IMG/VR virus record: IMGVR_UViG_3300031951_000044
Source of the DNA: a virus
Taxonomy: Duplodnaviria; Heunggongvirae; Uroviricota; Caudoviricetes
Strand: one strand, 5' to 3'
DNA length: 64,000 nt
The translations under genes and the position numbers were made by a program. A model generated the notes under the pieces. The model was not told the origin of the DNA. It did no database searches and saw only the letters and a list, made by a program, of their open reading frames with translations. Numbering within the stretch: position 1 is the stretch's first letter; each line of letters begins with the position of its first letter. Below are positions 2,733-42,062 of the stretch, piece after piece.

Positions 2733-2787
2733 AATTTTCTATACTTGCAAATTTATTCGGATGAACAAATTTTATCATTCGGTTTTG

Positions 2788-2861
2788 TGGTCCCAACAGG
2801 ATTTGAACCTGTAACCTACTGATTATGAGTCAGTTGCTCTAACCGATTGAGCTATGAGACC
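2788..2861 (-). tRNA. tRNA with CAT anticodon (elongator Met or, more likely given adjacent TilS, tRNA-Ile2 k2CAU)
   Basis: gene strand ggtctca-ta-gctc...actga/CTCATAA/tcagt...caggTTCAAATcctg...tgggacc-a; 7-bp acceptor, G1-C72 paired (not initiator), C4-G69, anticodon loop cuCAUaa, T-loop TTCAAAT. Confidence 0.8.
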
Positions 2862-2887: not shown

Positions 2888-3490
2888 TTACGTTTCTTGT
2901 CTATTCATTACCAACTTTTTAACAATTTTTCTGATACCGGGATTAATAATAAATACTTCCGGAATAATTTTATGTCTGATTCGATTACGTGCAAATCGAA
3001 TATCATCATTTGATTTATCATCCCAATATGGAACACTTTTATCGTTACACCAATTTTGAAACGCTACCTTTGACGTGGTTAAAAATGGTCGAATAACATT
3101 TTTATTACAATAGTTGATTACTTTTGGTTTTCCATGAATACAGGAAAAAATATAAGTTTCAACAACGTCATCAAGATGATGTGCGGTAATAACCGTCCCA
3201 TTAATCGAATGAAAAAACTCATAACGAATGTTTCTCCAATATTCCTCAAGAGATTCAGTTTTAAGACGATTTCTCTTAGATAATCCAAAAATTATCTTAA
3301 CATTATTATTTTCACAATATTTGCGAATCTTATCTTCTACAAATTGTGAATGTTCAGTTCCATGATTGAAGTAAAGAACGGTTACATCCTTTTTACCTCT
3401 AATTAAAAAATCAAGAACAGCCATAGAATCAACACCACCTGAGCAAGCAAGGTAAACATTGTGGGGAATACTACCCATGATTTTAATCAT
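2888..3490 (-). CDS. tilS: tRNA(Ile)-lysidine synthetase, catalytic N-terminal domain only (200 aa)
   Basis: PP-loop SGGVDS; AHHLDDVVETYIF; IRPFL; WDDKSNDDIRFARNRIRHKIIP all match TilS signature blocks. Confidence 0.75.
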   Translation of the reverse strand: MIKIMGSIPHNVYLACSGGVDSMAVLDFLIRGKKDVTVLYFNHGTEHSQFVEDKIRKYCENNNVKIIFGLSKRNRLKTESLEEYWRNIRYEFFHSINGTVITAHHLDDVVETYIFSCIHGKPKVINYCNKNVIRPFLTTSKVAFQNWCNDKSVPYWDDKSNDDIRFARNRIRHKIIPEVFIINPGIRKIVKKLVMNRQET

Positions 3491-14438: not shown

Positions 14439-14603
14439 ACTAATTTATTGTTTAAAAATCATTTTTTATCCGTTTTTTTAAGAAAAATTTGTACGCTAAA
14501 TAATAAACCAATGAGAGAAATAAATGCTATAATAAAAATTTCGTGTGATTGCATTGTAATATATGTTTAATGTTAGACAATAAGTTGGTGATTTGGTTGC
14601 CTA

Positions 14604-15185: not shown

Positions 15186-15238
15186 TTTTATTTGATTTAA
15201 AATTTTATATTAAATTATAGTTGAATTTGGTGTTAGAA

Positions 15239-15517: not shown

Positions 15518-15574
15518 TTTTTAATATTTTTAATTTGTTTCACAAAGATATGGAATCCTTTTCGATTTCCAAAA

Positions 15575-15889
15575 TTATTCTTCTCTAATAGAGATTTTTT
15601 TAATATATACAATAGTTGATTTTGGTATTGAAACACAATAACCAATCATGTTCTCATTTCTAAAATAACTATCAGTTAAGACTAGCTTATTTGCGTCCTG
15701 ATAAACGATAAATCCAAGTTGTGTTACCGTATCTTGTTGTGCTCCTGACCATTCCAGCATTTCGTCATATGTTCTCCATCCACCATCTGTTGCTGTAATA
15801 TCAACCCATTTTATTAAAACTGGTTGGTAATCCTGTGAATAAACATTAATTCCAATAGCTAAAAATATTAAAAAAAGTAAATTTCTCAT
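15575..15889 (-). CDS. secreted hypothetical protein (signal peptide)
   Basis: MRNLLFLIFLAIGINVYSQ N-terminus. Confidence 0.45.
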   Translation of the reverse strand: MRNLLFLIFLAIGINVYSQDYQPVLIKWVDITATDGGWRTYDEMLEWSGAQQDTVTQLGFIVYQDANKLVLTDSYFRNENMIGYCVSIPKSTIVYIKKISIREE

Positions 15890-20208: not shown

Positions 20209-20403
20209 TTATTTTTTATAACCCATTTCTACTGCTGTATCATAAGAAACATTATGTGCTGTTACACAATGTACTAAGATACCAAACACATAATAAAAAA
20301 CAGTAACATCTGTTTTTTGAACACTTACTTCGCCAATTTTACCCCATCCCCAAGGACCAACAACTACTTTTTTACCAAACAATGAATTTCTTCGATTGTT
20401 CAT
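20209..20403 (-). CDS. hypothetical protein
   Basis: co-oriented ORF. Confidence 0.4.
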   Translation of the reverse strand: MNNRRNSLFGKKVVVGPWGWGKIGEVSVQKTDVTVFYYVFGILVHCVTAHNVSYDTAVEMGYKK

Positions 20404-21380
20404 TTTTTAGAATCATAAGATTTGTTAATAACTTTAAAAGAACCATTTTCATGATTAATTACAACACCCTCAAAAGGTTTACCTTCAATTTTATCAATAC
20501 CAACCGAATATTTTTGAATCAACTCATTAGTTAATTCGACATCCAATTCAATGATATCAACGAATGGTAATTCCAATTCTTGCGCAACATTTCTAAAATA
20601 GAATCTATCGTTCTTTCTATGATATTTACGTTCTTTAATGTTATATACAGAAAACATTACCCACCCTTTTGGTTTTTGAGAATGTGGATTGTTTCCAGAA
20701 CTTTGAATCCCTTGACCAAACGACTCACCACGAATGCACAAAGAAACATTATGTTTTTTGCAATAGTCAATAAGCTTATTTTTAATGTTGTAACGAGCAA
20801 CATGTGCGGTATAGTTATTTACCGCATCCAACTTCATTTCCAAGTTTCTTCCAAGAACACCAAATTCATCAGTTTCAATGTTATAATAGAAACTACAACT
20901 TTGTCCATCAACTTTAGATGTAACATCAACAATTGAACCGAATGGAAGTTCATCAATGATATTCTCAAATCGAATTTCATCAGTGGGACCAATTCCAACC
21001 GGAAGATAACCTTTTGCTTGAAGATCTTGTGGTTGTGGTGCTTCATAATGAACAACACCAATTTGTTCACTCACATCAGAGCCAACTTGAAGATTTGATA
21101 AATCAACTGGAAGTTGTTCAAACCTAACAATAATACCTTCACTAAATTCGCCACGAAGTTTTACAGCTTTGATTCGTTTTGGTGAATATTTTCGATACTC
21201 TTCAGTCCAAGGTTCAATAGGAAGAACCGCATCAGGTCGAATATAAACAATTTTCTCACCACCCTTATAAAGTCCTTTTTGTGTAACGCATTGAAACCCA
21301 AGAATCTTAACAAGATCAAGTCTATCTGCATCAGGATGAGCTTTGACTTCAGAAATAATTTCAATCGTTGCGTCTTTCAT
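20400..21380 (-). CDS. putative RNA ligase with N-terminal tRNA-binding (Myf/EMAP-like OB) domain
   Basis: N-term HPDADRL...VLPIEP...KLRGEFSEGII = tRNA-binding OB fold; nucleotidyltransferase motif I TSKVDGQSCSFY (KxDG). Confidence 0.55.
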   Translation of the reverse strand: MKDATIEIISEVKAHPDADRLDLVKILGFQCVTQKGLYKGGEKIVYIRPDAVLPIEPWTEEYRKYSPKRIKAVKLRGEFSEGIIVRFEQLPVDLSNLQVGSDVSEQIGVVHYEAPQPQDLQAKGYLPVGIGPTDEIRFENIIDELPFGSIVDVTSKVDGQSCSFYYNIETDEFGVLGRNLEMKLDAVNNYTAHVARYNIKNKLIDYCKKHNVSLCIRGESFGQGIQSSGNNPHSQKPKGWVMFSVYNIKERKYHRKNDRFYFRNVAQELELPFVDIIELDVELTNELIQKYSVGIDKIEGKPFEGVVINHENGSFKVINKSYDSKK

Positions 21381-23341: not shown

Positions 23342-24142
23342 TCAAACTGGCAAATTAATTTTGTTCAAAATTTGATTTGAAACGTGTGTGTATATTTCTG
23401 TGGTTTTAACATTTGAATGACCAAGAATTTTTTGAATAATTCTTAAATCTGTTCCATTTTCTAATAAGGATGTTGCAAAACTGTGTCTAAGTGTGTGTAT
23501 ATGTCCATCAGATTCAATATATTTTTTGTATATTTTCTGACAACTACCTATTGAATATTTAGTACTGTTTTGTCCATTGAAGAGATATTCCTTTGGGATA
23601 TAATTTTTATAATAAGTTCTTAATAGTCTTAATACATTTTGAGATAATGGAACAACTCTATCTTTTCTTCCTTTTGCGTTCTTAATGTGGATTAACATTC
23701 GCTTGGAATCAATATCCTCTATTTTAAGATTAATTATTTCTGAGACTCGTAGACCAACTGAAAAAGTTAAGGTGAGAATTGCTTTGTGTTTGAGATTATC
23801 AATCTTATTTAATTTATCAATGATTGAATTTGAATCAATTACTTTTGGTAGTTTCTTCTCAGATTTAGGTCTTTTAAACGATATTTTATCATATTTTTTA
23901 TTAAGACCAAATTTGTAGAGAAATCTTATTGCGTTAATGATTTGGTTTTGTTGTGCTGTTGAAGTGAATTTATAATTATCTAAATAGGATTGAAAATCTT
24001 GAGCATTACAATGTATTACTTGTTTACTACCAATGTGATTTAAGAAATTTTTTATATGTGAAAGATAATTATCTTTTGTTCTTGGTGAATAGTTTAAATA
24101 TATAAACTTTTCTTCACAAATCTTAATAATTTTATTATTCAA
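23342..24142 (-). CDS. tyrosine site-specific recombinase (Xer/IntI-like, 266 aa)
   Basis: GLRVSE (box I Arg); HTLRHSFATSLLENGTDLRIIQKILGHSNVKTTEIYTHV (H-x-x-R, catalytic Tyr); apparent TTG start. Confidence 0.8.
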   Translation of the reverse strand: MNNKIIKICEEKFIYLNYSPRTKDNYLSHIKNFLNHIGSKQVIHCNAQDFQSYLDNYKFTSTAQQNQIINAIRFLYKFGLNKKYDKISFKRPKSEKKLPKVIDSNSIIDKLNKIDNLKHKAILTLTFSVGLRVSEIINLKIEDIDSKRMLIHIKNAKGRKDRVVPLSQNVLRLLRTYYKNYIPKEYLFNGQNSTKYSIGSCQKIYKKYIESDGHIHTLRHSFATSLLENGTDLRIIQKILGHSNVKTTEIYTHVSNQILNKINLPV

Positions 24143-24439: not shown

Positions 24440-24533
24440 CATAACAAGGTGTATATGTAATTTTTTTTACAAAGGTACGAATAAGTTTTGACATTTCCAA
24501 ATAAAAAACTACATATACACCCAATCGTTAGGC
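24440..24533 (-). repeat. attC-like imperfect palindrome (site A) with internal TAccTTTG promoter
   Basis: +strand cACATAAC-aa-GGTGTATATGTA ...48 nt... TACATATACACC-caatc-GTTAGGc. Confidence 0.6.
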
Positions 24534-24537
24534 GCAA

Positions 24538-24756
24538 TTACAACAAACCCTTCGAGAAAAGTTGTGCAATTTGATTTTCGGTTAAATCTTCGCCTTTGAG
24601 CATTGCAGGTTCATTTACTCTTGTGCCATCGTGTTTAATTGTGTAGGTAACAGGATACTCTTTCTTCGGGTCAACAAATTTGACCAAGTAACTGCGCCTA
24701 ACAACGTATTGCTGAACATTGCCAGCTTCGTCTTTAACTTCAACTCTGATTTTCAT
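24538..24756 (-). CDS. cassette ORF, hypothetical
   Basis: ORF bounded by repeat elements. Confidence 0.45.
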   Translation of the reverse strand: MKIRVEVKDEAGNVQQYVVRRSYLVKFVDPKKEYPVTYTIKHDGTRVNEPAMLKGEDLTENQIAQLFSKGLL

Positions 24757-24823
24757 ATTTATTTTTTTGTTTTTAATTCAACATTTGTGTTTCAAATTGG
24801 CAACGTCAGCAATACGCAAACCG

Positions 24824-25105
24824 TTATATGCCACCTTGCGGTCTCAGCAACAAGTACCATCCGTTTTTTATGACATCTTCCCAAATCAATACTTCTGCAT
24901 TCAAAGATTGTGCTTGTTCAGTTATACCACCTTGTGCAAGTTGCCAAAGCATATTCATATTCAAAACATCTTCACGACTGATAAAGTATTGTTTTTTCAG
25001 TTCCAATTTTGACCAATCCCATGTTAACCCTTTCCTTCCCAAATCAAAAAGGCGGCATATAACAGCAGTTTGGCAAGATGCGGGGTTTTGTACTTCGTTT
25101 GACAT
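24824..25105 (-). CDS. cassette ORF, hypothetical
   Basis: stop codon overlaps aaaccGTTAtatg core. Confidence 0.4.
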   Translation of the reverse strand: MSNEVQNPASCQTAVICRLFDLGRKGLTWDWSKLELKKQYFISREDVLNMNMLWQLAQGGITEQAQSLNAEVLIWEDVIKNGWYLLLRPQGGI

Positions 25106-25171
25106 ATTGTTTTTTATTTAAAAATTTGTAATTCTAATCGTCTTTAGTGCTGTAAATCCCGCACCTCGCCA

Positions 25172-25557
25172 AGCTGCGAAACGTTATGTGTAAGTGTTCC
25201 ACCCATCGTTCTAATCAACATCTATGTTTAAAATTTTAAAAGAAAAATTATTTGTTAAATGGTTCACTAAACATAGTTTTAGGATATGTTTCTTCCTTTC
25301 TACTTGAAGGGTTAAATATAGTTACTCGTCCAACACCATACGGTTGGTTATCATATTTAATAACCAAATAATCCTTTTTATTATGAAGTTGGTAATTATC
25401 TTCTGGTGCGTTTTTACATGTGACGTATAACCCATCTTTAAAGTTTTCAAATTTTTTAACTATGTTTCCCATAATCTATATATTAATTTTTCTTTTAAAA
25501 TTTTTGTTCAGTTCTCCGATTAAACATTCCACCTTAATAATCCACACCTACACATAA
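25172..25557 (-). mobile_element. conserved cassette frame copy 1 (12-bp terminal IRs GTTATGTGTARG, ~80-nt conserved subterminal arms, inner IR AAATTTTAAAAGAAAAAT) carrying ORF 25248..25472
   Basis: arms near-identical to those at 29257..29820 while enclosed ORFs are unrelated. Confidence 0.55.
25248..25472 (-). CDS. cassette ORF, hypothetical (74 aa)
   Basis: inside conserved frame. Confidence 0.45.
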   Translation of the reverse strand: MGNIVKKFENFKDGLYVTCKNAPEDNYQLHNKKDYLVIKYDNQPYGVGRVTIFNPSSRKEETYPKTMFSEPFNK

Positions 25558-25610
25558 CAAATGATAAACAACATTAAAACGATTGTTTATCATCGGACGT
25601 TATTCCCCAT

Positions 25611-26063
25611 TTAAAAAACCTCAAATGGAGACACGTAATACATATTTGGTTTATAATCTGCGTATGATACCGTTTTCTGTTGTAAATATATCTTTATACA
25701 CGATGAATCTTTTGCAGTCAACCAAAAATATTTCACATTCTTACTATATTTTTCATCGTTAATTCTATATTCTTGCCCCTTTTGAATACAAATATTTTCG
25801 TCAATAACTTGATTTCTGTTAAATTCAATAAACGCTCCATAATCTCCAATTACAATTCTTTCATATCCTTTTGAAATTATTGTACCGTTTGCTGTTTTTA
25901 ACTCAAATTCAGAATCACCATTGATATTCAAACATTTTGGTATTTCAGACAAATATTGGTTTCTTACCTTGTCAGATAATTCTGATGGAAGTTTTTTGTA
26001 TTTATATTGTAATGCTAATTCGTCTTGTAACATAAAAAATTGGATAAAAACGGGGCATAACAC
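25611..26063 (-). CDS. cassette ORF, hypothetical (150 aa)
   Basis: ORF bounded by repeat elements. Confidence 0.45.
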   Translation of the reverse strand: MLCPVFIQFFMLQDELALQYKYKKLPSELSDKVRNQYLSEIPKCLNINGDSEFELKTANGTIISKGYERIVIGDYGAFIEFNRNQVIDENICIQKGQEYRINDEKYSKNVKYFWLTAKDSSCIKIYLQQKTVSYADYKPNMYYVSPFEVF

Positions 26064-26178
26064 ACGGTATAAAAAATTGGGGCGTGTGTGCGTTCCCGAA
26101 GGTTTGTACTATTAATTATCATTGTATCGGTGCGAAAGTTTATATCTTTTAATCCCCAACTTTTCATACCGTCAACCG

Positions 26179-26481
26179 TTATGCGGGATCGAGAACAATG
26201 CCGTGCGCTTTAAACACCGCCTCGACCTCTCCGATCCCGACCGCCCACACAATATCGTGTCCTCCGGATCCATCGCTTATATGCAGTCGTTCCTGTTCTG
26301 CGAGAATCTCTCGCACCATCGCCTTCACCTCGCTCTCGGTGAACACGCGCTCTTTCTTTTCCGAGCTCGCCTGAGGCTTTTCGCCTGAGCAGCGGCGGCA
26401 CGGTCTTGGTGGATTGATGCTGATGTGACCTCCGCACTTGGAGCACTTGCCGCTCGATGGGCCTAACTTCCTTTTTGCCAT
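26179..26481 (-). CDS. GC-rich cassette ORF, zinc-ribbon-like protein
   Basis: CSKCGGH...CRRCSG; ~60% GC versus ~30% genome background; flanked by ...caaccGTTATGCgg (26171-26185) and attC-like 26521-26581. Confidence 0.5.
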   Translation of the reverse strand: MAKRKLGPSSGKCSKCGGHISINPPRPCRRCSGEKPQASSEKKERVFTESEVKAMVREILAEQERLHISDGSGGHDIVWAVGIGEVEAVFKAHGIVLDPA

Positions 26482-26520
26482 TGTACCTTTTGCTTTTTAC
26501 CGAGTGAAAAAGAATGACCC

Positions 26521-26581
26521 CGCATAACAGTCGGGTTGCCGTTATTGAATGCACAACGGCAACCCGCCGAACCGTTATGTG
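26521..26581 (-). repeat. attC-like site (site F) upstream of GC-rich cassette
   Basis: cgCATAAC-agtcg-GGTTGCCGTT-attgaatgcac-AACGGCAACC-cgccgaacc-GTTATGTg. Confidence 0.55.
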
Positions 26582-26586
26582 TAATA

Positions 26587-26994
26587 CTACATTTGTTCTC
26601 CGATTTGAGTTTCATCTGCAATATCTTTTTCTTTTCTTTTTTCTCCACGCTCTTTAAGAGTAATAATATTATTTCTCAAAGAATTTATTTTTCTTTCGTA
26701 TTCTTTGAATTTTAAATATTCATCATCATATATTTTTATTCTTTCAACATTTTCTGGTGTGTTTTCAGCCAAAGCCCAAGAATAAGTTGCTTGTAATCTT
26801 TCACCAGTTTCTTTACAAGTAAATTCATAACTGCCATTATCTCGTTGAATAACATTATTCATTATCGTTCCAATTTTAATTGGTTTACTTTCAAGTTTGT
26901 TAGGTATCCAAACCATATCTAATCTGTAAATATATTCCATATCAGATTTTGGTTTTCCATTGTCTTTATCTATTAAACAATCAAATATTCCCAT
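26587..26994 (-). CDS. cassette ORF, hypothetical
   Basis: ORF in array. Confidence 0.45.
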   Translation of the reverse strand: MGIFDCLIDKDNGKPKSDMEYIYRLDMVWIPNKLESKPIKIGTIMNNVIQRDNGSYEFTCKETGERLQATYSWALAENTPENVERIKIYDDEYLKFKEYERKINSLRNNIITLKERGEKRKEKDIADETQIGEQM

Positions 26995-26995
26995 T

Positions 26996-27595
26996 TTATT
27001 TATTATTAAATATGTTTATAATTTTTCGAATTTCATCTTGTTTCCAAGGTCTATTCTTACTGCCATCTTCAGAAATTGTTAAATAATCACCATCATATCC
27101 CAATGCTCTTTCAATTAACCAAGGTCTTGATTCTTGTTCAACTGCAATCCACCCATCTTTTGTTTTACCAATTGGAGTACTTCCTTCCTTAATTTCTTCA
27201 CTACCATCTAATGGTAATAAATCTCTTGTTTCATTATAAATTATTCTTGTATCTTTGAATAGTTCATACACTAATCCAACATCTTCACCAGTCCATTCAG
27301 TATCTTCTGTTTGATGTTCATATTTTTTAGCAAGAAAATAACCATCAGATTCTGTTCTTAAAACATATTTTTGATGTAATATTTTTCTACATTCTCTATT
27401 ATAATGGTCAATAGTGTTTTGAATATCTTCTTGTCCTTTCCAATAGTTGTCTTCGCCTACCGAAAGCGAATCACCATTTTGTGGCTGTTCACCAACAAAT
27501 TTTTGATTATCTAAACAAGCCAGTATCATTTCAAAGGAATCTTCCGATATTACAATGTTTCCTTTACCGTCTTTTTTTGCTTCAATTTTCATCAT
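26996..27595 (-). CDS. cassette ORF, hypothetical (199 aa)
   Basis: ORF in array. Confidence 0.45.
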   Translation of the reverse strand: MMKIEAKKDGKGNIVISEDSFEMILACLDNQKFVGEQPQNGDSLSVGEDNYWKGQEDIQNTIDHYNRECRKILHQKYVLRTESDGYFLAKKYEHQTEDTEWTGEDVGLVYELFKDTRIIYNETRDLLPLDGSEEIKEGSTPIGKTKDGWIAVEQESRPWLIERALGYDGDYLTISEDGSKNRPWKQDEIRKIINIFNNK

Positions 27596-27599
27596 AGTT

Positions 27600-27917
27600 T
27601 TAAATTTTAGTTTTTAACATTTCTTTATAAGCATTACCTGTATCAAATTGTTGTTCAAATGTTGGATTTGGATAATGTTCGTTTTTAATCCAATTATCGT
27701 GATGTTCAAATGTTCTCCATTCATTATCACGTAATTCTTTTACCATATTCATCAATCCAGTTCCAACTTTCATATCAGAAGGAATTTCAACTCCACCATC
27801 TGGTGTAACTTTTACAATTGTTTCTAATTTCATATTATTTATTTTTAAATTTTTCAAATTTATTTTGTCCAACCCACAAAAAAGAAAAGAAAAAGGTTCA
27901 GTTCTCCGAATGAGCAT
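27600..27917 (-). CDS. cassette ORF, hypothetical
   Basis: ORF in array. Confidence 0.45.
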   Translation of the reverse strand: MLIRRTEPFSFLFCGLDKINLKNLKINNMKLETIVKVTPDGGVEIPSDMKVGTGLMNMVKELRDNEWRTFEHHDNWIKNEHYPNPTFEQQFDTGNAYKEMLKTKI

Positions 27918-27941
27918 TTGTAGTTTAAATCCGTACTACTG

Positions 27942-28033
27942 CTAACATCGTGTATAAAACATAGCCAATTAAGGTCTGTGGTTTATATTAAGTATTGTGC
28001 GTGGCTACGTTTCATACACCCAACCGTTAGGTG
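27942..28033 (-). repeat. attC-like site (site G)
   Basis: CTAAC-atc-GTGTATAAAAC ...48 nt... GTTTCATACAC-ccaacc-GTTAGGTG. Confidence 0.55.
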
Positions 28034-28042
28034 TAATAAATT

Positions 28043-28231
28043 TTACTCCAACACACCCTTCAAAGTTCGTTTCTTCATTTCACCAAAGTTTCTTTCTTCT
28101 TCTGCCAATTTTCGTAGTTCTTCTTGAAGTTCCATTGGTATTTTATCACCATACTTACCAAGTATCTGAAATAATAATGTTTCCCTACCTAAAGAAACTT
28201 TCATATCAATTAACAGTTGTATATCTTTCAT
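28043..28231 (-). CDS. cassette ORF, hypothetical
   Basis: ORF in array. Confidence 0.4.
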   Translation of the reverse strand: MKDIQLLIDMKVSLGRETLLFQILGKYGDKIPMELQEELRKLAEEERNFGEMKKRTLKGVLE

Positions 28232-28250
28232 AATCCGTAAAATTTACATA

Positions 28251-28383
28251 CACCTAACAAAGTATAACCAAAAGTGGGGTGTAGTTCCAACATTCAGATA
28301 TTGTGCTTCTAATTTACTTTTGTAGGTAAGTCAGGGTTCGGCACTTCTAATCCCCACCTTCGGTTATACTCAACCGTTATAAG
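28251..28383 (-). repeat. attC-like site (site B), nested hairpin
   Basis: CACCTAAC-aa-AGTATAACC...aaGTGGGG...CCCCACctt...GGTTATACT-caacc-GTTATAAG. Confidence 0.6.
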
Positions 28384-28395
28384 TAATAAAACAAA

Positions 28396-28626
28396 CTACT
28401 TTATTCTGTTTATTTTTATAATAAATATTTTAGTGAAAATCATCCAGATCATAAATAAAGTTGAAGACGAAACTAAAATATTTACCAAAAATTGTTTTAC
28501 ACTGAATCCAAAGTGTGATAAATACCACCACCCACTAATAGAACTACCTATTGTTAAAAATAAACAGAATAAAATAAACAGTGTATATAATATACCATCT
28601 AGCGTAATTTGACCTTCAATTTTCAT
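28396..28626 (-). CDS. cassette ORF, small membrane protein
   Basis: hydrophobic 76-aa ORF. Confidence 0.4.
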   Translation of the reverse strand: MKIEGQITLDGILYTLFILFCLFLTIGSSISGWWYLSHFGFSVKQFLVNILVSSSTLFMIWMIFTKIFIIKINRIK

Positions 28627-28656
28627 ATTTAATTATTATTTAGTTTGTTTTACATA

Positions 28657-28813
28657 CTTATAACAACAAATATAAGAAATAAATTTTGATTTATCTAATT
28701 TTTATAGGTAAAATTTACTTCTCATATTTACAACCGTTATGCAAAAGTGTGGCAAGAAAGTTTTGTCTATAATTTGAAATTTTGGAGTTGCCACACCTTC
28801 GCATAACAACGGC
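28657..28813 (-). repeat. two adjacent attC-like sites (possible ORF-less cassette)
   Basis: cTTATAAC-aa-CAAATAT...ATATTTA-caacc-GTTATGCaa overlapping GTTATGC-aaaa-GTGTGGCAA...TTGCCACAC-cttc-GCATAACaacgg. Confidence 0.45.
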
Positions 28814-28858
28814 TAAAACGACAATATTTAAAAACTTTCCCACCGCACAATTGAACAA

Positions 28859-29182
28859 TTAAGAATTACCAAGTATAATGTCAATCACTTCTTTTGGTGC
28901 TTCTATCAATTCATCTTCACGGTATTTTCTCCATCCTGCCTGATTTTCTTCTTGTGAAATACTGTGAGCAATCACCCAAGTAAATTCTCCTTTTTCAGAA
29001 TACTTTTCTACAAATTCCTTTTGAGCAATTACATGTTTGCACAAATAAAATACCTGCGTTCCTGCATAGCAAGTTTGTGCAATCACTTCCATTACTTCCA
29101 AAGCACTCATCTGGTTCTTTGAATTGGTGTCGAATTTTCTTTTCACCAAATTGTTTACGTCAAATTTTGTTTTGATTTCCAT
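28859..29182 (-). CDS. cassette ORF, hypothetical
   Basis: ORF in array. Confidence 0.45.
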   Translation of the reverse strand: MEIKTKFDVNNLVKRKFDTNSKNQMSALEVMEVIAQTCYAGTQVFYLCKHVIAQKEFVEKYSEKGEFTWVIAHSISQEENQAGWRKYREDELIEAPKEVIDIILGNS

Positions 29183-29256
29183 TTTACTTTTTGTTTTTAA
29201 TTATTATTATTTAATTGATTAATTATTTCCCTCGCAAAAGTTTTTAAATACTGCGT

Positions 29257-29820
29257 TTAGCCGATATACGTTATGTGTAAGCGTTCCGTTCATCGTTCTA
29301 ATCAACATTTCGGTTGAAAATTTTAAAAGAAAAATCAAAATCCATAATGAAACCATTTATCATCATTTGGTAGTTGTTCTTTTAATTGTTTGTTTATTTT
29401 TCCCACTATATTTTGAGCAGTAACCGAAGTTATACCTTTAACATCAAAATCATAAGCAATTTGACCGATTGAATATACAAACATTCTCAGTAATTCTCTT
29501 GGTATATCAAATGTTATATCCACATCATAAGTATAGTTTTTACCAGAAAAGTTTATTTCGTCACTTATTGGTCGCATAACTAAGTGATGTAAATCTTCAA
29601 ACCAATCCTTACTCAGTCTTTCACAACCTTTTTTCATCATTGACTCTACCCAAGTTCCAGATGAATTCCACTCTTCTCTTGTTAGAGAAATTTTAACCAC
29701 CTTTTCAAAATAATTGATAGTTGTAATTTTTTGTTTATAATTCATATATTTTTCTTTTAAAATTTTTGTTCATTTCTACTATTTAACATTCTACCTTAAT
29801 TAACCACACCTACACATAAC
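29257..29820 (-). mobile_element. conserved cassette frame copy 2 carrying ORF 29335..29745
   Basis: acGTTATGTGTAAGcgttcc...ttctaatcaacat...aaattttaaaagaaaaat | ORF | atttttcttttaaaatttttgttca...ccacaCCTACACATAAC. Confidence 0.55.
29335..29745 (-). CDS. cassette ORF, hypothetical (136 aa)
   Basis: inside conserved frame. Confidence 0.45.
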   Translation of the reverse strand: MNYKQKITTINYFEKVVKISLTREEWNSSGTWVESMMKKGCERLSKDWFEDLHHLVMRPISDEINFSGKNYTYDVDITFDIPRELLRMFVYSIGQIAYDFDVKGITSVTAQNIVGKINKQLKEQLPNDDKWFHYGF

Positions 29821-29909
29821 AAGGTGTATAAGAAAGTTTGCTATAAAGTTCAGTGGTTAATTTGAAAGTTCATCTAAGCAAACCTTCTCATACACCCAAC
29901 CGTTATAAG
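29813..29909 (-). repeat. attC-like site (site C)
   Basis: CACATAAC-aa-GGTGTATAAG...CTCATACACC-caacc-GTTATAAG. Confidence 0.6.
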
Positions 29910-29916
29910 TAATAAT

Positions 29917-30162
29917 TTAAAATTTATTTATTATTTTATTTTCAATATATTCTTTAACTTTTGACGGTAATATTTGTGTTGGAAATGACCCTTCCGCACC
30001 AACATACATTTCACTACTTGCAACATCACTTGCATCTATTTTATAATATTGTTCATCTGGTGAACATATCGTTACATGAGTTACCTCACCCCATCTACCA
30101 GAACCAACCCAATAAAACCATAGGTCATTTCCAATATGTATTTTTCTTTTCGTTTTTTTCAT
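29917..30162 (-). CDS. cassette ORF, hypothetical
   Basis: ORF in array. Confidence 0.45.
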   Translation of the reverse strand: MKKTKRKIHIGNDLWFYWVGSGRWGEVTHVTICSPDEQYYKIDASDVASSEMYVGAEGSFPTQILPSKVKEYIENKIINKF

Positions 30163-30244
30163 AGGTATAAATTGTAAATTACATACTTATAACAGCAAAT
30201 AAAACACATTAAAACGATTGTTTATCATCAGACGTTATAAACAA

Positions 30245-30523
30245 TTAAATTATTTTCCGCAACAGTTCATCTTTATCCAAAAAAATATCATCCTGTTTAT
30301 ACCAATCATAACTAGATAAATGTCCACCTGAAGGATAGAATTGTTCATTAACTACAACCAAGTAATCAATTTCAATTCCATCCATTTGTTCCATTGTTTC
30401 GCCTTTGATATAAGGTACCCCATGAACAATTCTAATCTTTTCAATTTTACTTTTAAATATTTTTTTGGATAAAAGTATATATACTTCTTGTCCAACATCA
30501 TACTTTACATTATATGTTTTCAT
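30245..30523 (-). CDS. cassette ORF, hypothetical
   Basis: ORF in array. Confidence 0.45.
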   Translation of the reverse strand: MKTYNVKYDVGQEVYILLSKKIFKSKIEKIRIVHGVPYIKGETMEQMDGIEIDYLVVVNEQFYPSGGHLSSYDWYKQDDIFLDKDELLRKII

Positions 30524-30541
30524 AATAAAATAATTTAACGT

Positions 30542-30664
30542 GTTTATAACAACAAATATAAAACATTTATTTCAGCGTTCCAAATTTATTGTTGGTTTAT
30601 ATTTATATACTGTTTTTCAATTTAAGTTTAGTTTAAAACGTTTTATATTTGCAACCGTTATAAG
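30542..30664 (-). repeat. attC-like site (site D), perfect L boxes
   Basis: gTTTATAAC-aa-CAAATATAAAAC ...75 nt... GTTTTATATTTG-caacc-GTTATAAG. Confidence 0.6.
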
Positions 30665-30670: not shown

Positions 30671-32674
30671 CTACATCTCGTTTCCAAATATAGTCCCTAC
30701 ATGTAAATCTTTTTCTTTTCTTTTTTCTTCCCACGCTTTTTTTATTTCCATAGAAAGAAATGGTAAAATCGAAAAAAGTAGTTTATTTAAGTGTTTTAAA
30801 ACATAGTAAAACTCTGTTTCATATTTAATTCTCATATTGGAATTTGTGTCAGATTCATAAAATTCATTTTTAATATCCTCCGTCAACAAAGATGAATAAT
30901 AGTTTATAAATTCAACAAAACCCCTTACTGCTTTATTCAAATCAAATTCATTGACAAGTAAATCAAATTTATTTTCCAACTCTTTTACTTTAAAAAAAAT
31001 ATTTTCATCAACTTTTGTTTCATCATAATCATATATATATAGATTATTAAATAAATAACGGAGAAAGTTTCTTATTTTAAAATATTGTTTACCAGAGTTT
31101 TTTAATGAATCTTCCGAAAAGACAATATCGTTTTTAAAATCTGACAGTAAAACCCATAGTCTTAATACATCAGGGTTATATGTTTCATACAGCTTTTCCA
31201 AACTTCCGCCATTACCTTTTGATTTTGATAGTTTTTCTAATGTGTTATCAACAATAAATCCGTGTGTTATTATTCTTTTTGTTGGTACTCGACCAATCAT
31301 TGATGCTAATATAATCGAACTTTGAAACCACCCTCTGTGTTGGTCTGAACCTTCAATGTATATATCGGCAGGTTTATCATACATCATAAATGTAGAACCA
31401 CTATCAAACCAAACATCCAATATATCATTACTATTAGGTATTTTAACACCCCATTTTCTTTGTCTTGAAATACACCAATCTTTGCGTGAAAATATTGTCG
31501 TTGATAAACGATTTCTGTCTTTTGATGATAACTTTATTTCTTTTAAACAAGTCTTTATTTTGTTTAAATCAAAATCAAGATACGTTTGTTCCGTTAATAC
31601 TTTATACACCTTATTCCCTTCACGCCAATCAATTGGATAATCGTGTGTGTAAATTTCACGTTTATATACAAACTTTTCATCAATTTTAAAATCTTCTATG
31701 TGTTTTAATAAGCCGATTTTATCGCACACATTTTTGGGGGTTATGTTATTATCCATTAAAATTCGATAATCTTCATCACCGTGTCCACCGCAAAGATGTA
31801 CTATACCTGTTTTATCATCTGAAACGTAGTCATCATAAATAATTGGACATAAATCTCCATTGTGGTTATGATATGACTTAATATTACTCACATCAAACAA
31901 ATCATAATCTAAATTATTTTCAATAGCAAAACTTTCACTACAAATAATATTGTCAACAGTTTTAACATATTTTATATTATTACTTAAACATACTGCCTGA
32001 TTTCCGTTTACAGTCCATTCTGTTGTTGTCCAAACAAGTAATTTAAAACTATCAGAGTTGAATAGAAAATACAAAGATTCATCTTCTATTTTTTTATATT
32101 CAATTTCTGAGTTAGCCAATACTGTTTTTAATGTTGGTGAGTACCAAGTAGGCTTATTCTTTTTAAGAATTAGACCCGCATTTAGTAGTTGGTGGTATAT
32201 ATATAATTCTCTTTCTATAAAATCAATATCCATAGTTTTAAACCTACCTTCAGTTGGATAAATCCCGAAAAGTTCAAGAGTTTTATTTTGAATATCACAA
32301 TATTTGGTTGCGACTAATTTAGCATTTTGAATTAAATCACCACTCATTTCTTTTGCTTTATTTTCAATGGGTAAACCATGACAGTCCCAACCAAATGAAA
32401 CCCTAACTTTCTTACCTTTTGTTAAGTAATATTTTACAACAAAATCTTTCAAGGTTTTGTTTAAAAAATGTCCCAAATGTAATTCTCCATTGGCGTATGG
32501 TTCACCATCTTGTATAATGTATTCATCATTTGAATTTTCATACAAGTTGTTCACATAATCTTTGATAGAAGCGTTCAATAAAGTAAGTTTATCTCTATCT
32601 AACTTCTGTGTAATTTCTTCTTTTGGTAATAATACTTTATTCATTATTTTAAATTTTATTTTCCCACCACACAA
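30671..32674 (-). CDS. ileS: minimalist isoleucyl-tRNA synthetase-like class I aaRS (667 aa)
   Basis: PYANGELHLGH (HIGH), GWDCHGLPIE, WTTTEWT, DWCISRQRKWGV, DVWFDSGST, EGSDQHRGWF, KLSKSKGN (KMSKS) - IleRS signature blocks; CP1 and C-terminal regions much shorter than bacterial IleRS. Confidence 0.7.
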   Translation of the reverse strand: MCGGKIKFKIMNKVLLPKEEITQKLDRDKLTLLNASIKDYVNNLYENSNDEYIIQDGEPYANGELHLGHFLNKTLKDFVVKYYLTKGKKVRVSFGWDCHGLPIENKAKEMSGDLIQNAKLVATKYCDIQNKTLELFGIYPTEGRFKTMDIDFIERELYIYHQLLNAGLILKKNKPTWYSPTLKTVLANSEIEYKKIEDESLYFLFNSDSFKLLVWTTTEWTVNGNQAVCLSNNIKYVKTVDNIICSESFAIENNLDYDLFDVSNIKSYHNHNGDLCPIIYDDYVSDDKTGIVHLCGGHGDEDYRILMDNNITPKNVCDKIGLLKHIEDFKIDEKFVYKREIYTHDYPIDWREGNKVYKVLTEQTYLDFDLNKIKTCLKEIKLSSKDRNRLSTTIFSRKDWCISRQRKWGVKIPNSNDILDVWFDSGSTFMMYDKPADIYIEGSDQHRGWFQSSIILASMIGRVPTKRIITHGFIVDNTLEKLSKSKGNGGSLEKLYETYNPDVLRLWVLLSDFKNDIVFSEDSLKNSGKQYFKIRNFLRYLFNNLYIYDYDETKVDENIFFKVKELENKFDLLVNEFDLNKAVRGFVEFINYYSSLLTEDIKNEFYESDTNSNMRIKYETEFYYVLKHLNKLLFSILPFLSMEIKKAWEEKRKEKDLHVGTIFGNEM

Positions 32675-32772
32675 AAAGAAAAGAAAAAGGTTTCGTCTTT
32701 CAAATCAAGTTCTGTGCTATAATACCGCACCTGCTTATAACAGCGTGTATATGCAAGTGGCGGGTTTGTGGT

Positions 32773-34119: not shown

Positions 34120-34794
34120 TTAGACAAAGCTAATCATTCTATTTGACATATCCAAATCAATGTTCAAAGGTTTGTTTTGATAAACATAATTTTCACCAAG
34201 AGAACACGCATTAATAAAATTAATATTGTCTCTTTGCATATAACCATAAGAATAATGAATATGACCAAAACAATGAATTATTGGATTAATTCTTTTAATT
34301 TCTTCGGTCAAAATTTCGCATCCAACGGATTGTCCCTGAATTGTTTTGTCCAAACAACCAAACGGTGGACCATGTGTAATTAATATATCAATATTCTCCG
34401 GTATTGCTTTCCATTTTTCTTTAAGTTTTTCACCGTTTCTTGGAAGATTAAACGCCCAATTATAAAATTCTGGTTGCCAAGGTGAGCCATAAATTTTGAC
34501 CCCCTCAATTTCAACCATATTATCCTGAAGATAAATTATATTTGAATATTCTTGAACCAATTCCTTTGATTGGAGTGGGTTATCTTCAAAGAAGAAATCG
34601 TGATTACCAGCAATGAATACTTTGTGTGTATAGGAATCTAAATCGGTAAACCATTCAAGGAACAATCTAACCTCTTCTCTATAACCACGCGAAGAAATAT
34701 CACCACAATGAATAATCATGTCTCCACCCGGAAGATGTTCTTTCGGAATGTGATGATGTTTTGTGTGGGTATCAGATATTATTGTAATTAACAT
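34120..34794 (-). CDS. calcineurin-like metallophosphoesterase
   Basis: IISDTH...HCGDI...GNHD...HGPPFG motifs. Confidence 0.65.
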   Translation of the reverse strand: MLITIISDTHTKHHHIPKEHLPGGDMIIHCGDISSRGYREEVRLFLEWFTDLDSYTHKVFIAGNHDFFFEDNPLQSKELVQEYSNIIYLQDNMVEIEGVKIYGSPWQPEFYNWAFNLPRNGEKLKEKWKAIPENIDILITHGPPFGCLDKTIQGQSVGCEILTEEIKRINPIIHCFGHIHYSYGYMQRDNINFINACSLGENYVYQNKPLNIDLDMSNRMISFV

Positions 34795-37230: not shown

Positions 37231-37740
37231 TTATTTTAATATTTGGTTTAAATAATCAAACATGGGTTTTAATTCATCGCAATATAACTCACGATTAAAT
37301 TCCTCATTTTCTTTACGATACGCATTCACCATTGAACTATCATTACTTATAGAATAACTCGCATTTGCAAGTCTATCGCAGACCTTAACGAATCTAGCAA
37401 CAGGAATATCGCGAATACCCTGATAGTATTTAGCATTCGCTCGGTCTTTTCGCGTCCTACCTTTTTCATTCGTTAATGCATAGACAGCTTCTGCAATTTG
37501 CTCACCGAATTCCTTTTTGATGTCGTTGTAACTTATAAAGTAAATATCCTCTAGTGTGTCGTGTAACCATGCGGATGCTTGCGCTATTTCCAAATCATCA
37601 TCTTTAAGGAGATATTGGAACTGACTTGCAAATTCACTGACCATTTTAAGATGAACCTCATAAGGTTGATTATCATATTTTTGATTCACAGCATTGTGTG
37701 CTTTGATTGCAAACTCCCTTGCTTTATTTACTATATTCAT
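37231..37740 (-). CDS. HD-domain phosphohydrolase
   Basis: H...WLHDTLED...D motif. Confidence 0.6.
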   Translation of the reverse strand: MNIVNKAREFAIKAHNAVNQKYDNQPYEVHLKMVSEFASQFQYLLKDDDLEIAQASAWLHDTLEDIYFISYNDIKKEFGEQIAEAVYALTNEKGRTRKDRANAKYYQGIRDIPVARFVKVCDRLANASYSISNDSSMVNAYRKENEEFNRELYCDELKPMFDYLNQILK

Positions 37741-39539: not shown

Positions 39540-40613
39540 TTAATCTTCTTTATTCCAATAAGGTTTTTGATATTTTGGTCTTACCAAATCCCAAATTAGT
39601 GGTTTATAATTTCTATTATCCAACATCGAATACAATATTTTTTGATATCTTGGAATCACATTCGATTGTATCCATAATGCTTTATCTTTTCTATTTTCAA
39701 GTTGTTGATTATTGAGTTCATCTTTTTTTGTATTGCAGACTGATAAAATGTAATCAAAAGACTTGTTCAAGTCAAATATCTTACCTCTAACCCACTTATC
39801 AAATTCATCTGGAACTTTATTCAAGAACGCATAAATATCATCTTCGTTTTTCAAACATTCCCAAATATCAACGTTTGAAAAATTGGTTATTAATTTATGC
39901 AAACGAACATATTCATCAAATTTAATTTTGATTCGATAGTTAGATGGTTCAAATTTAATAATATAACCCTCTCTATTTTCTTCAAAAGAATTCTTTAATG
40001 ATTTATAATCAAATACATTTCCATATTCTTTAACAATATGTGAATTGGGTATTTGACAACGATTAAATTCTTCTTTGCACTGAGACCAAGAAAGTTCCTT
40101 ATCTTTATGATAGATGGATAAGAAAAATAGTTTTTCCTCATTATAAACCACAACAATCGTGTTTTCAACATAAATTATTTCAACTAGATATGTGTATTCC
40201 GGATTTAACAAATCAACACGATACAAATTATGTAATATTTCCTCAGCTTTTTGCGCTTGTTCAGACATAAAAGAACCTCTGGTTGCTACATTCCACTTAT
40301 TATCATAATAATAAATAATTCCAAGTGATCCATCACATTTATCTTGCACAATCGGATTTTCTTTTACAATAATATTAAACGCGGAGTGATTTTGTGGTAA
40401 TTCTTCATAATTAAAAAACTTTGAGAATCCTCTAGCAATTAAATTACCGTTCTCATCAAGAATGAGACCACGACAATTAAGCGTAATATCGTCCCACTTA
40501 TTATCAAACTGAGTTTTTCTTGAGTAATTATAAATAAAAAGATTTTTGGTTGGGTGTTTTGTTTCTTCTACCCAACCATCAATAACATATTGCTTTATTT
40601 TATTATGATTCAC
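39540..40613 (-). CDS. RNA ligase, T4 Rnl1-like
   Basis: motif I KCDGSLGIIYY (T4 Rnl1 KEDGSL); 357 aa. Confidence 0.6.
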   Translation of the reverse strand: MNHNKIKQYVIDGWVEETKHPTKNLFIYNYSRKTQFDNKWDDITLNCRGLILDENGNLIARGFSKFFNYEELPQNHSAFNIIVKENPIVQDKCDGSLGIIYYYDNKWNVATRGSFMSEQAQKAEEILHNLYRVDLLNPEYTYLVEIIYVENTIVVVYNEEKLFFLSIYHKDKELSWSQCKEEFNRCQIPNSHIVKEYGNVFDYKSLKNSFEENREGYIIKFEPSNYRIKIKFDEYVRLHKLITNFSNVDIWECLKNEDDIYAFLNKVPDEFDKWVRGKIFDLNKSFDYILSVCNTKKDELNNQQLENRKDKALWIQSNVIPRYQKILYSMLDNRNYKPLIWDLVRPKYQKPYWNKED

Positions 40614-41026
40614 GATAATTTTTTTATAACAATTTTTCTTAACTGCTCACCAATTGGTTCTGGTAGGTTATCTATTCCAAACCAACCACACTGTGAATGT
40701 TCATGACCATCTTGTGCTGTTTCCAAATTAACATCAAATTCATTATCAACCTCACAAAAATAAACATACAAAAGACCTTTCATTTTTTCGCCATTCCTTG
40801 TCATTTTTGCAATTAATGAAATTAATTCAATATCTTCGTTTATTTCAATATCAGTTTCTTCAAAAAATTCTCTATATGCTGCATCGATTGGTGCTTCATC
40901 TTCTTCAATTCCTCCAGATGGTATACTCCATTCACCTCCTCTTATTTTTTTTAAAGAGCGTTTACATAAAAGAACTTTGTCATCACATTTGACCAAAATT
41001 CCAGCATATCTTTTATTTTTCTTCAT
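40610..41026 (-). CDS. NUDIX hydrolase
   Basis: Nudix box GGIEEDEAPIDAAYREFFEETDI. Confidence 0.65.
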   Translation of the reverse strand: MKKNKRYAGILVKCDDKVLLCKRSLKKIRGGEWSIPSGGIEEDEAPIDAAYREFFEETDIEINEDIELISLIAKMTRNGEKMKGLLYVYFCEVDNEFDVNLETAQDGHEHSQCGWFGIDNLPEPIGEQLRKIVIKKLS

Positions 41027-41474: not shown

Positions 41475-42062
41475 ATGATATTTATGGTTATGAAAAAGAT
41501 AAAATTAACAGAATCGGATTTATATAGAATTGTTAGAAAGGTTCTTCTTGAACAGGAGGAAGAAAAGAGAAGTTTTACATTTTCTCCGGGAGCATTTGCA
41601 TCTTTTATAACATCATCATCAGGTGAAAGATTTGTTAAACATCTTAATAACAAATATGATGAGATTGTTGTTAATGGGCATTTGGATTTAAGTGAAACAC
41701 AAATTCAATCCTTACCGGATAATCTTAAAGTTGGGGGAAGTTTGTGGTTAAATGGAACACCAATTCAATCCTTACCGGATAATCTTCATGTTGGGGGAAG
41801 TTTGTATTTACGAGGAACACCAATTCAATCCTTACCGGATAATCTTGACGTTAAGGGATTGTTGGATTTAAGAGGAACACCAATTCAATCCTTACCGGAT
41901 AATCTTCGTGTTGGGGGAAGTTTGTGGTTAAATGGAACACCAATTCAATCCTTACCGGATAATCTTAGGACTGGATTAGAAATTGATATTATCAATACAC
42001 CATTAAGTAAAAATGATGAATTAGTTGCGAACTATAGAAAAAAATATATAATTGTTAAATAA
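41475..42062 (+). CDS. LRR-like repeat protein (5 x 20-aa GTPIQSLPDNLxVGGSLWLN)
   Basis: 60-bp tandem DNA repeats 41695-41975. Confidence 0.55.
   Translation: MIFMVMKKIKLTESDLYRIVRKVLLEQEEEKRSFTFSPGAFASFITSSSGERFVKHLNNKYDEIVVNGHLDLSETQIQSLPDNLKVGGSLWLNGTPIQSLPDNLHVGGSLYLRGTPIQSLPDNLDVKGLLDLRGTPIQSLPDNLRVGGSLWLNGTPIQSLPDNLRTGLEIDIINTPLSKNDELVANYRKKYIIVK
41695..41975. repeat. 60-bp in-frame tandem repeat x ~4.7
   Basis: caattcaatccttaccggataatctt... repeated. Confidence 0.85.

Follow-up and report, generated by a model that had tools for sequence, protein, structure and literature searches.

Isoleucyl-tRNA synthetase (IleRS) separates tRNA-Ile from tRNA-Met by a single wobble nucleotide, a job that bacterial enzymes assign to a C-terminal zinc-binding module. 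This zinc-binding domain (ZBD) has been called essential for recognition of nucleotide 34 (N34) in bacterial IleRS (PMC11685878); engineered, C-terminally truncated forms of the enzyme activate isoleucine and leave tRNA uncharged (cited in PMC11685878), and the helical anticodon-binding domain of S. aureus IleRS makes a base-specific contact with A35 only (PMC11685878). A cited IleRS paper presents C-terminal remodelling as a continuing way to tune turnover; its text is silent on phages and uses “truncat” once, in an unrelated sense. Among viruses, huge phages have been reported to carry up to 15 aminoacyl-tRNA synthetase (aaRS) genes per genome, together with tRNA-modification and tRNA-ligation genes (PMC7162821, Al-Shayeb et al. 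2020), and a phage homologue of the lysidine synthetase TilS has been noted in the jumbo phage MIJ3/PA5oct with its function given as unknown (PMC6892783). Here we describe an IleRS gene in a 64,000-nucleotide stretch of caudoviricete DNA (IMG/VR record IMGVR_UViG_3300031951_000044; hereafter the window), the product of which ends directly after the helical anticodon-binding domain. The initial annotation of this stretch had considered any phage aaRS unusual, a view superseded by the 2020 report (PMC7162821); the novelty lies instead in the architecture of the enzyme and in its genomic partners.

We favour, at a probability of roughly 0.6, the reading that this protein is a working, streamlined, type-1-derived IleRS of a very large AT-rich phage, which would charge tRNA-Ile during infection; its activity, tRNA specificity and biological role we infer from its identity, architecture, conservation, predicted fold and genomic context. 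No natural ZBD-less IleRS was found in the literature searched, and this architecture appears to be new.

Identity and architecture of the phage IleRS

The gene lies in an uninterrupted open reading frame (ORF) on the minus strand (30671..32674), which counts 667 codons from a TTG at 32674. The initial annotation took this full length for a “minimalist” IleRS homologue of 667 aa. The ATG at 32644 is, however, the probable start, because the resulting 657-aa product is identical to the metagenome database protein P0001 and its homologues align from this methionine, the N-termini of the whole family lining up there; the 10 codons added by the TTG are thus unlikely to belong to the protein. Minimalism, which is conserved in the family, stands as a description of the enzyme, and its length is corrected to 657 aa. 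Reading TAG or TGA as sense codons brought only modest ORF gains, and read-through of the IleRS TAG would add 17 residues and no domain; as no better gene models resulted, the standard code applies. The principal features of the gene are as follows (E. coli numbering is that of IleS):

30671..32644, minus strand: coding sequence of the IleRS, running from the ATG at 32644 to the TAG at 30671-30673 (657 aa); IleRS by Pfam, NCBIfam and PDB searches
32468..32479, minus strand: HIGH signature HLGH, aa 56-59; H56, G58 and H59 invariant in 64 sequences
31220..31234, minus strand: KMSKS signature KLSKS, aa 471-475; K474 and S475 invariant
31625..32077, minus strand: editing (CP1) domain, about aa 190-340; keeps WTTTEWT (aa 205-211), N215, H283 and D292
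31421..31441, minus strand: junction KWGVKIPNSNDILDVWFDSG, the site that lacks the ~53-aa insertion of cellular IleRS1 (E. coli ~476-529) in alignments
30713..31114, minus strand: helical anticodon-binding domain (ARD1/Anticodon_1), the last domain present; PF08264 at 31.3 bits (cutoff 25.1)

Profile searches place the product with IleRS: the NCBIfam ileS model (TIGR00392) scores 385.1 bits (7e-115), as against 168 for valS, 113 for leuS and 111 for metG, and Pfam recovers tRNA-synt_1 at 1e-65. The best PDB sequence matches are type 1 bacterial IleRS (H. pylori 8WNF, 2.6e-81; S. aureus 1FFY, 1.3e-73), with type 2 IleRS behind them at ~1e-45 (160 vs 277 bits). An AlphaFold2 model computed from a 64-sequence alignment has a mean predicted local distance difference test (pLDDT) score of 92.5 and a predicted template-modelling score (pTM) of 0.86, and is uncertain only in the KMSKS loop, where low pLDDT is expected of a mobile loop. 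With this model Foldseek returns H. pylori IleRS, P. megaterium IleRS1 and S. aureus IleRS at the top, ValRS and LeuRS being far behind, with template-modelling (TM) scores of ~0.8 when normalised to the query and ~0.58 when normalised to the target, a pattern that fits a model representing the core of IleRS1 enzymes. On the combined weight of profile scores and predicted fold, the assignment of the ORF to an IleRS of bacterial type 1 ancestry is secure.

These comparisons bear out much of the initial annotation. Its identification as an IleRS homologue is upheld by the wide lead of ileS over the other class I profiles, and the motifs that it quoted (PYANGELHLGH, GWDCHGLPIE, WTTTEWT, DWCISRQRKWG, DVWFDSGST, EGSDQHRGWF and KLSKS) are all present in the translation. 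Loss of HIGH or KMSKS, which it had named beforehand as a refutation, is not seen, both signatures being intact across the family as H[ILA]GH and K[FL][AS]KS in all members. The structure prediction that it proposed yields a confident model matching IleRS1 structures, and the suggested comparison with mupirocin-resistance enzymes places the protein closer to the mupirocin-sensitive type 1 than to MupA (128 bits), MupB (148 bits) or IleRS2; the type 2 hallmarks, a HUP-2 catalytic domain and an ARD2-ARD3 C-terminus, are not found in the window IleRS, which has no C-terminal domains.

The conserved residues extend well beyond the two signatures. The isoleucine- and adenylate-site residues D87, W412, E431, Q435 and W439 are invariant in all 68 members. 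Within the editing domain, T206-208, T211, N215, H283 and D292 align to E. coli T241-243, T246, N250, H333 and D342 and, where not invariant, show conservation of at least 90%, so that both the threonine-rich peptide and the Asp342 equivalent, whose survival had been raised as a question, are retained. In the anticodon-binding domain, which is helical over aa 511-644 in the model, R525, N526, Y596 and R605 are invariant in the family.

What the enzyme lacks was measured by aligning the 68 family members with their ten nearest cellular relatives of ~910 aa and, separately, with E. coli IleS from MG1655. Relative to the ten cellular enzymes, the differences from the N-terminus onwards are:

N-terminus: 8 aa shorter
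HIGH to editing domain: 12 aa shorter
editing domain (CP1): 33 aa shorter
region after the editing domain: 11 aa shorter
WCISRQR to DVWFDSG (E. coli ~476-529): 53 aa shorter
region before KMSKS: 10 aa shorter
after the helical anticodon-binding domain: 132 aa shorter (~153 aa against E. coli)

The stretch between WCISRQR and DVWFDSG has a median length of 20 aa in the phage family vs 73 aa in the cellular relatives. The reduction of ~80 aa that had been ascribed to the editing insertion is therefore the sum of two losses, with only 33 aa missing from the editing domain itself and a separate 53-aa insertion missing outside it, whereas the reduction of ~150 aa ascribed to the post-KMSKS region holds against E. 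coli and shrinks to 132 aa against the nearest cellular relatives. The window IleRS stops at the equivalent of E. coli ~785, ~13 aa past the helical anticodon-binding domain; the C-terminal junction domain and the treble-clef ZBD are thus wholly absent. No CxxC...CxxC cysteine motif occurs in the protein, and no separate copy of the ZBD was found in the window. The deletion boundaries are constant in the family (e.g., ranges of 51-51 aa and 19-22 aa).

Protein searches recovered this family as ~70 clusters of 626-699 aa with 47-100% identity, some of whose members reside on contigs of 256, 396, 519, 533 and 603 kb. Scores then drop from 610 to 348 bits, where ordinary IleRS of ~910 aa with 31-35% identity begin, one of them labelled Arcobacter. 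Four contigs (L001-L004) match the window at 100% identity; their gene lists differ only through the gene callers used. In a more distant relative (L006), the short IleRS lies between a class Ic aaRS of the Glu/Gln type (513 aa; 8191-9732) and a class IIa aaRS of unusually small size (373 aa; 12486-13607), and in another (L005) an IS605 OrfB/TnpB-like gene (14497-15801) is situated 2.6 kb from the IleRS gene.

Genomic partners and the role of the enzyme

The window encodes only two tRNAs, with anticodons CAU and UCU, and a short TilS:

2888..3490, minus strand: minimal TilS, 200 aa, single-domain; TIGR02432 at 126.4 bits (cutoff 93.6), PF01171 at 3e-33
2787..2861, minus strand: tRNA(CAU), 26 nt downstream of the TilS gene; found by ARAGORN and Rfam
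6639-6711, minus strand: tRNA-Arg(UCU), matching AGA

This TilS lacks the C-terminal tRNA-binding domains of cellular TilS (it scores 60.9 on the full-length equivalog model against a cutoff of 606) and belongs to a very large family of ~200-aa forms, with 910 matches on contigs of up to 462 kb. A CAU tRNA adjoins the short TilS in two of the three divergent loci examined (L130 and L132); a search of IMG/VR with a back-translated TilS gave one weak locus only. The tRNA(CAU) of the window has a paired G1-C72 and an anticodon stem without a G-C run, and hence is not an initiator. Its best E. coli matches are all annotated as tRNA-Ile, the one inspected being ileX, a lysidine tRNA, and by these sequence features it is most likely tRNA-Ile2, a substrate for lysidine formation, rather than tRNA-Met. 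In the genes of the window isoleucine takes up 9.3% of codons, AUA (26.4 per 1000) exceeds AUG (22.4 per 1000) and AGA makes up 60% of arginine codons. The remark in the initial annotation that an IleRS must accept the lysidine-modified anticodon was thus apt, both TilS and tRNA-Ile2(CAU) being found in the same window, and the IleRS, minimal TilS and tRNA(CAU) together would constitute a phage AUA-decoding set.

The window as a whole has a G+C content of 25-40% and is packed with ORFs that are mostly co-oriented and mostly unannotatable. Upstream of the IleRS gene lie genes for a T4 Rnl1-type RNA ligase (39540-40613), a NUDIX protein (~40610-41026), a SpoT-like HD protein (37231-37740) and a metallophosphatase (34120-34794), and downstream of it a second RNA ligase, of the DRB0094/PHA02142 type (20400-21380), all on the minus strand, giving what looks like a tRNA-repair and maintenance neighbourhood. 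The motif TTTG-N17-23-TAnnTTTG occurs upstream of 9% of genes vs 1% of random positions and Shine-Dalgarno sequences are depleted, a style of promoter and ribosome-binding site that suggests a Bacteroidota-type host. The window further encodes a sigma-70 factor (59656-60456), a DnaJ (51351-52277) and an SbcC/gp46-like protein (61462-63789), and on the plus strand a tandem repeat at 41681-41966 (60 nt, 4.8 copies, 84% matches) lies in frame in a 195-aa ORF (41475-42062), giving 20-aa protein repeats.

In the reading that we favour, the catalytic core would activate isoleucine with ATP and transfer it to tRNA-Ile, and the retained editing site would hydrolyse Val-tRNA-Ile, the result being extra isoleucine-charging capacity during infection for a proteome with 9.3% isoleucine. 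The enzyme may work beside the phage tRNA-Ile2(CAU) and the minimal TilS, which would decode the abundant AUA codons. The lost C-terminal module would be the counterpart of the part with which bacterial enzymes read the wobble base (G34 or lysidine); in its absence, recognition has to depend on the retained helical domain and on contacts elsewhere. Anticodon recognition may accordingly be relaxed or have moved to other contacts, to A35 through the helical domain and, in addition, to the acceptor stem, and is, to judge from the domain content, probably less stringent at position 34; stringency may have been traded for small size and speed. The strongest case for tRNA handling comes from the residues of the editing site and of the anticodon-binding domain, whose invariance over deep divergence points to a tRNA substrate, since keeping a proofreading site is sensible only if aminoacyl-tRNA is made.

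Several observations weigh against this reading. The score of the window IleRS (385.1 bits) misses the TIGR00392 equivalog cutoff of 621.4 bits, a shortfall that fits the ~250 missing residues and not a divergence of the core. The only pocket position that varies is the first proline of GPPYANG; this residue, which we take to be the equivalent of Pro46 in the T. thermophilus enzyme of Nureki et al. 1998, is kept in 46 of the 68 members and is replaced by glutamate in 18, including the window protein, and by cysteine in four. No capsid, terminase or other structural hallmark gene was found in the window in PHROGs searches with eight large unannotated proteins, the IleRS and TilS; the assignment to a phage is thus indirect and is drawn from the style of the genome, the sizes of the contigs, the T4-like genes and the relatives in IMG/VR. 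A megablast of 24 kb against GenBank phages gave no match. The strongest counter-argument is the behaviour of the engineered truncations: as truncated IleRS activates isoleucine without charging, the window protein should fail at the transfer step (PMC11685878).

That same phenotype is what would be expected of an aaRS paralogue repurposed away from translation, either forming Ile-AMP or transferring isoleucine to another acceptor, or serving as a free-standing factor in editing or tRNA binding. There are well-documented cases of aaRS paralogues that combine truncated tRNA-binding parts with new functions, among them the IleRS homologue SbzA (PMC9437257), and the replacement of the pocket proline by glutamate or cysteine in a third of the members could be read likewise. 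We nevertheless regard such a role as unlikely, because the invariance of the editing site and of R525, N526, Y596 and R605 is hard to explain without a tRNA substrate, and because the gene lies among tRNA, tRNA-modification and tRNA-repair genes and, in L006, together with two other aaRS genes. The inactivity of truncated IleRS in transfer (PMC11685878) could instead mean that compensation is to be expected: a separate phage or host protein, for instance a small zinc-ribbon protein, would read the wobble base in trans, or the enzyme would be restricted to a dedicated phage tRNA recognised by features other than its anticodon. The phage does encode its own tRNA(CAU), and a cassette ORF of 100 aa on the minus strand (26179-26481), located in a locally G+C-richer stretch, has a CSKC-x11-CRRC motif with the cysteine spacing seen in the ZBD of the nearest relatives and is matched weakly by four ZBD queries. 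These matches are insignificant (E 0.36-8.6), so that we rejected this ORF as a stand-alone ZBD; moreover, its ribbon is N-terminal, the remainder is unrelated and without a Pfam match, and no homologue of it lies beside the IleRS gene in other phages, the IleRS neighbours differing in every relative examined. We regard an obligatory partner of either kind as unlikely.

Second copies of IleRS are known to be kept for mupirocin resistance (PMC9437257), and models of phage takeover of translation exist (PMC7162821), from which it might be argued that the phage enzyme sustains charging when the host IleRS is blocked by a mupirocin-like compound, shut off or degraded. Yet the catalytic domain has a canonical HIGH and belongs to the mupirocin-sensitive type 1, the MupA and MupB profiles reach only 128-148 bits, type 2 structures match less well and there is no link to inhibitor biosynthesis genes, which makes this explanation highly improbable. 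As for a decaying remnant without function, to which the large deletions relative to cellular IleRS and the score under the equivalog cutoff might point, it is effectively refuted by the pattern of conservation: ~70 clusters, diverging to as little as 47% identity, share one undisrupted architecture in which the catalytic residues do not vary, the deletions have precise boundaries that stay constant, and the model is confident.

As a widespread, conserved natural enzyme without the wobble-reading module, the phage IleRS makes the need for that module directly testable with a small, easily expressed protein of 657 aa, and may reveal either an alternative mode of recognition or a tolerated loss of stringency. 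The combination of IleRS, TilS and tRNA-Ile2 would illustrate how AT-rich huge phages can equip themselves for AUA, a codon generally rare in bacteria, and compact sets of enzyme and tRNA of this kind are of possible interest for engineered translation systems.

Hairpin repeats and the flanks of the gene

The initial annotation described the IleRS gene as a cassette bounded by attC-like elements at 30542..30664 and ~32700..32770. The features that bear on this proposal are:

30548..30659, minus strand: full structured repeat 3' of the IleRS gene, 11 nt past the stop, of the form TTATAAC-GGTTG-arm ... arm'-TT-GTTATAA; a member of a covarying family
32645..32765, minus strand: 5' flank, with the element right arm ATATACACGCTGTTATAAGC and no left arm, then the shared leader AACCTTTTTCTTTTCTTTTT
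24443..30659, minus strand: array of small ORFs (45-200 aa) without Pfam matches, split by nine full hairpin repeats and degenerate copies
30659-30548, ~30240-30186, 29904-29818, 28738-28655, 28378-28250, 28028-27940, 26180-26059, 25601-25556 and 24529-24443: the nine full repeats, all on the coding strand
23342..24142, minus strand: Xer/IntI-like tyrosine recombinase, 266 aa, closing the array on its downstream side in the same orientation; Pfam Phage_integrase at 2e-37

Each repeat is built of an outer helix of the form (T)ATAAC/GTTAT(A), a conserved GGT(TG) bulge on the 5' side, an inner helix of 12-20 bp and a variable loop. The same repeat forms arrays in other viral contigs, with nine copies in 8 kb in one (L014) and two to five copies in six more (L104, L127, L100, L039, L061 and L077). 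As a 14-mer scan of viral contigs gave mostly chance single matches, only the multi-copy structured loci among the matches listed were used. In an alignment of 25 distinct arm pairs, paired cells make up 96% and double changes occur at 12 of the 14 inner pairs, with a covariation score of 0.651 as against 0.175 in shuffled alignments (0 of 500 reach 0.651) and at most 0.145 in slid controls; the hairpin scan demanded at least 8 of 9 pairs at the first nine inner positions, so that the paired percentage is biased there, whereas covariation and positions 10-12 are free of this bias. The many G·U pairs on the coding strand favour a fold in the mRNA or in DNA of the top strand. Nearly identical copies of some hairpin subtypes occur in phages with recombinases that share only 45-78% identity.

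The recombinase scores 195 bits with the NCBIfam XerA model and 161 bits with the integron integrase model TIGR02249 (cutoff 265), and among PDB entries matches XerA (4a8e) at 4e-37 and IntI4 (2a3v, 320 aa) at 4e-28, the latter in two stretches. Homologues with 45-78% identity adjoin repeats in five contigs retrieved through the repeat alone (L127, L104, L061, L119 and L077), in each case downstream and co-oriented; counted over loci, the association holds for four of seven multi-copy loci and for one of 111 others (Fisher p = 2e-5).

At the IleRS gene itself the two flanks differ. The proposed 3' element is real and is a full repeat, the right arm of which overlaps a promoter-like site, TTTG-N20-TATATTTG; the 5' element amounts to a right arm and leader only, a flank that shares ~120 nt of homology with the junction lying downstream of the full repeat at ~27.95 kb. 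For the region 5' of the gene, a long hairpin that would take in part of an 87-aa ORF was considered and is not supported (z -0.63; the centroid structure prefers a small local hairpin). We also rejected the flanks as mere Bacteroidota promoters, as TAnnTTTG in the right arm is confined to the AT-rich subtypes and there is no enrichment of the promoter-plus-core pattern. The leader (~90 nt), which has the polypyrimidine block AACCTTTTTCTTTTCTTTTT in identical form, stands before the IleRS gene (32650-32700) and a 77-aa array gene (27849-27941), both on the minus strand, as well as the IleRS gene of L136 (1448-1540); the 105-aa ORF call at 27600-27917 probably over-extends through it. A 21-nt, 95% complementary pair between the purine-rich 3' end of the IleRS coding sequence (30705-30725) and the polypyrimidine block (32673-32693) was also seen and may reflect low complexity.

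In L136, the IleRS of which is 75% identical, the same leader stands before the gene and a degenerate repeat after it, and DNA homology to the window is confined to leader and gene, none of its neighbours being present in the window. This lends the cassette proposal weak support in the present sub-lineage, against which stand seven other relatives (L008, L137, L009, L010, L005, L006 and L007; 80-47% identity), where the IleRS gene is tightly packed among different neighbours without such repeats. The synteny of the array-bearing contigs with the window is too poor for an insertion or deletion of the IleRS gene to be inferred. A cassette reading drawn from these sequences is hence plausible for this sub-lineage only and is not a property of the gene family.

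We put forward tentatively, as a possible but doubtful extension, that two things hold jointly: the enzyme would be a naturally wobble-blind IleRS, charging tRNA-Ile without the module that tells G34 or lysidine-34 from C34, and its gene would, in this phage lineage, be cargo of an undescribed integron-like shuffling system of huge phages. The proposed parts of that system are bulged hairpins with AAC...GTT ends that fold on the coding strand and, closing each array downstream, a dedicated recombinase that is short and Xer/IntI-like. A wobble-blind IleRS, if true, would overturn the truncation-based view that the C-terminal domain is required, and the hairpin arrays with their recombinase, if mobile, would represent a new route of gene exchange in large phages, a separate and possibly more novel lead.

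Comparison with known systems

With type 1 bacterial IleRS (H. pylori 8WNF/8WNJ, P. megaterium 8C9E, S. aureus 1FFY/1QU2 and E. coli IleS), the phage enzyme shares the HUP-1-type core, the HIGH, KMSKS and isoleucine-pocket motifs, the CP1 editing domain with its threonine-rich peptide, histidine and aspartate, and the helical anticodon-binding domain; it differs from them in its 25-35% identity, its length (657 vs 910-940 aa) and the loss of E. coli 786-938. Engineered truncated IleRS lack the same part, but in the phage family, which is conserved in nature, the editing site remains intact, and this implies handling of tRNA.

A further lineage without the C-terminus is represented by a 735-aa ORF of the 635-kb uncultured phage LR745206.1, along with P0072 and P0078, while P0073 (807 aa) retains a zinc knuckle. 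As in the window family, the LR745206.1 IleRS ends right after the anticodon-binding domain and has neither junction domain nor ZBD; unlike it, this protein (~34% identity to the window IleRS, 735 aa) retains the 53-aa insertion and has WTTQPWT as its threonine-rich peptide. It is a separate, independent lineage, and loss of the C-terminal module is thus recurrent in large phages.

The phages of Al-Shayeb et al. 2020 likewise have aaRS genes on contigs of hundreds of kb beside tRNAs and genes whose products modify and ligate tRNAs. The searched text of that report (PMC7162821) covers the occurrence and phylogeny of such genes, and IleRS, lysidine and domain loss go unmentioned in it; neither the missing wobble module nor the link to TilS and tRNA-Ile2, both of them features of the window phage, appears there. 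The MIJ3/PA5oct TilS is similarly a phage-encoded lysidine synthetase homologue, for which no adjacent tRNA(CAU) is named (PMC6892783), whereas the window TilS is a ~200-aa single-domain form from a large family, physically linked to a presumed tRNA-Ile2.

The hairpin arrays resemble integrons in their co-oriented small ORFs, each followed by an imperfect hairpin in which conserved AAC...GTT ends go with an unpaired spacer and an inner helix that varies, and in the recombinase of the Xer/IntI branch beside the array. They depart from them in several respects. The integron IntI has a specific additional domain, and the window recombinase, at 266 aa, is too short for the IntI insertion; the integron integrase is located upstream near attI/Pc and usually divergent, whereas the window recombinase is downstream and co-oriented; attC has the form R''(RYYYAAC)...R'(GTTRRRY), of which TTATAAC/GTTATAA breaks two degenerate positions on each side; and attC recombines as the bottom strand, whereas the G·U pairs here favour a coding-strand fold, in a phage setting. 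The arrays are therefore integron-like in layout and not integrons by defining features, and of the “attC-like” flanks first proposed for the IleRS gene the structured repeats stand, with a full copy on the 3' side, while an integron identity falls on the IntI domain and on the position and orientation of the recombinase, and an attC identity is doubtful in view of the end boxes and the strand.

Repeated intergenic promoter or stem-loop modules that bracket small variable genes are also familiar from other phages, as in the PeSL “mobile regulatory cassettes” of T4-type phages and the RNase III hairpins of the T7 early genes. The repeats of the window are similar in that some copies overlap a Bacteroidota-type promoter; they differ in having a dedicated associated recombinase and a conserved bulged architecture.

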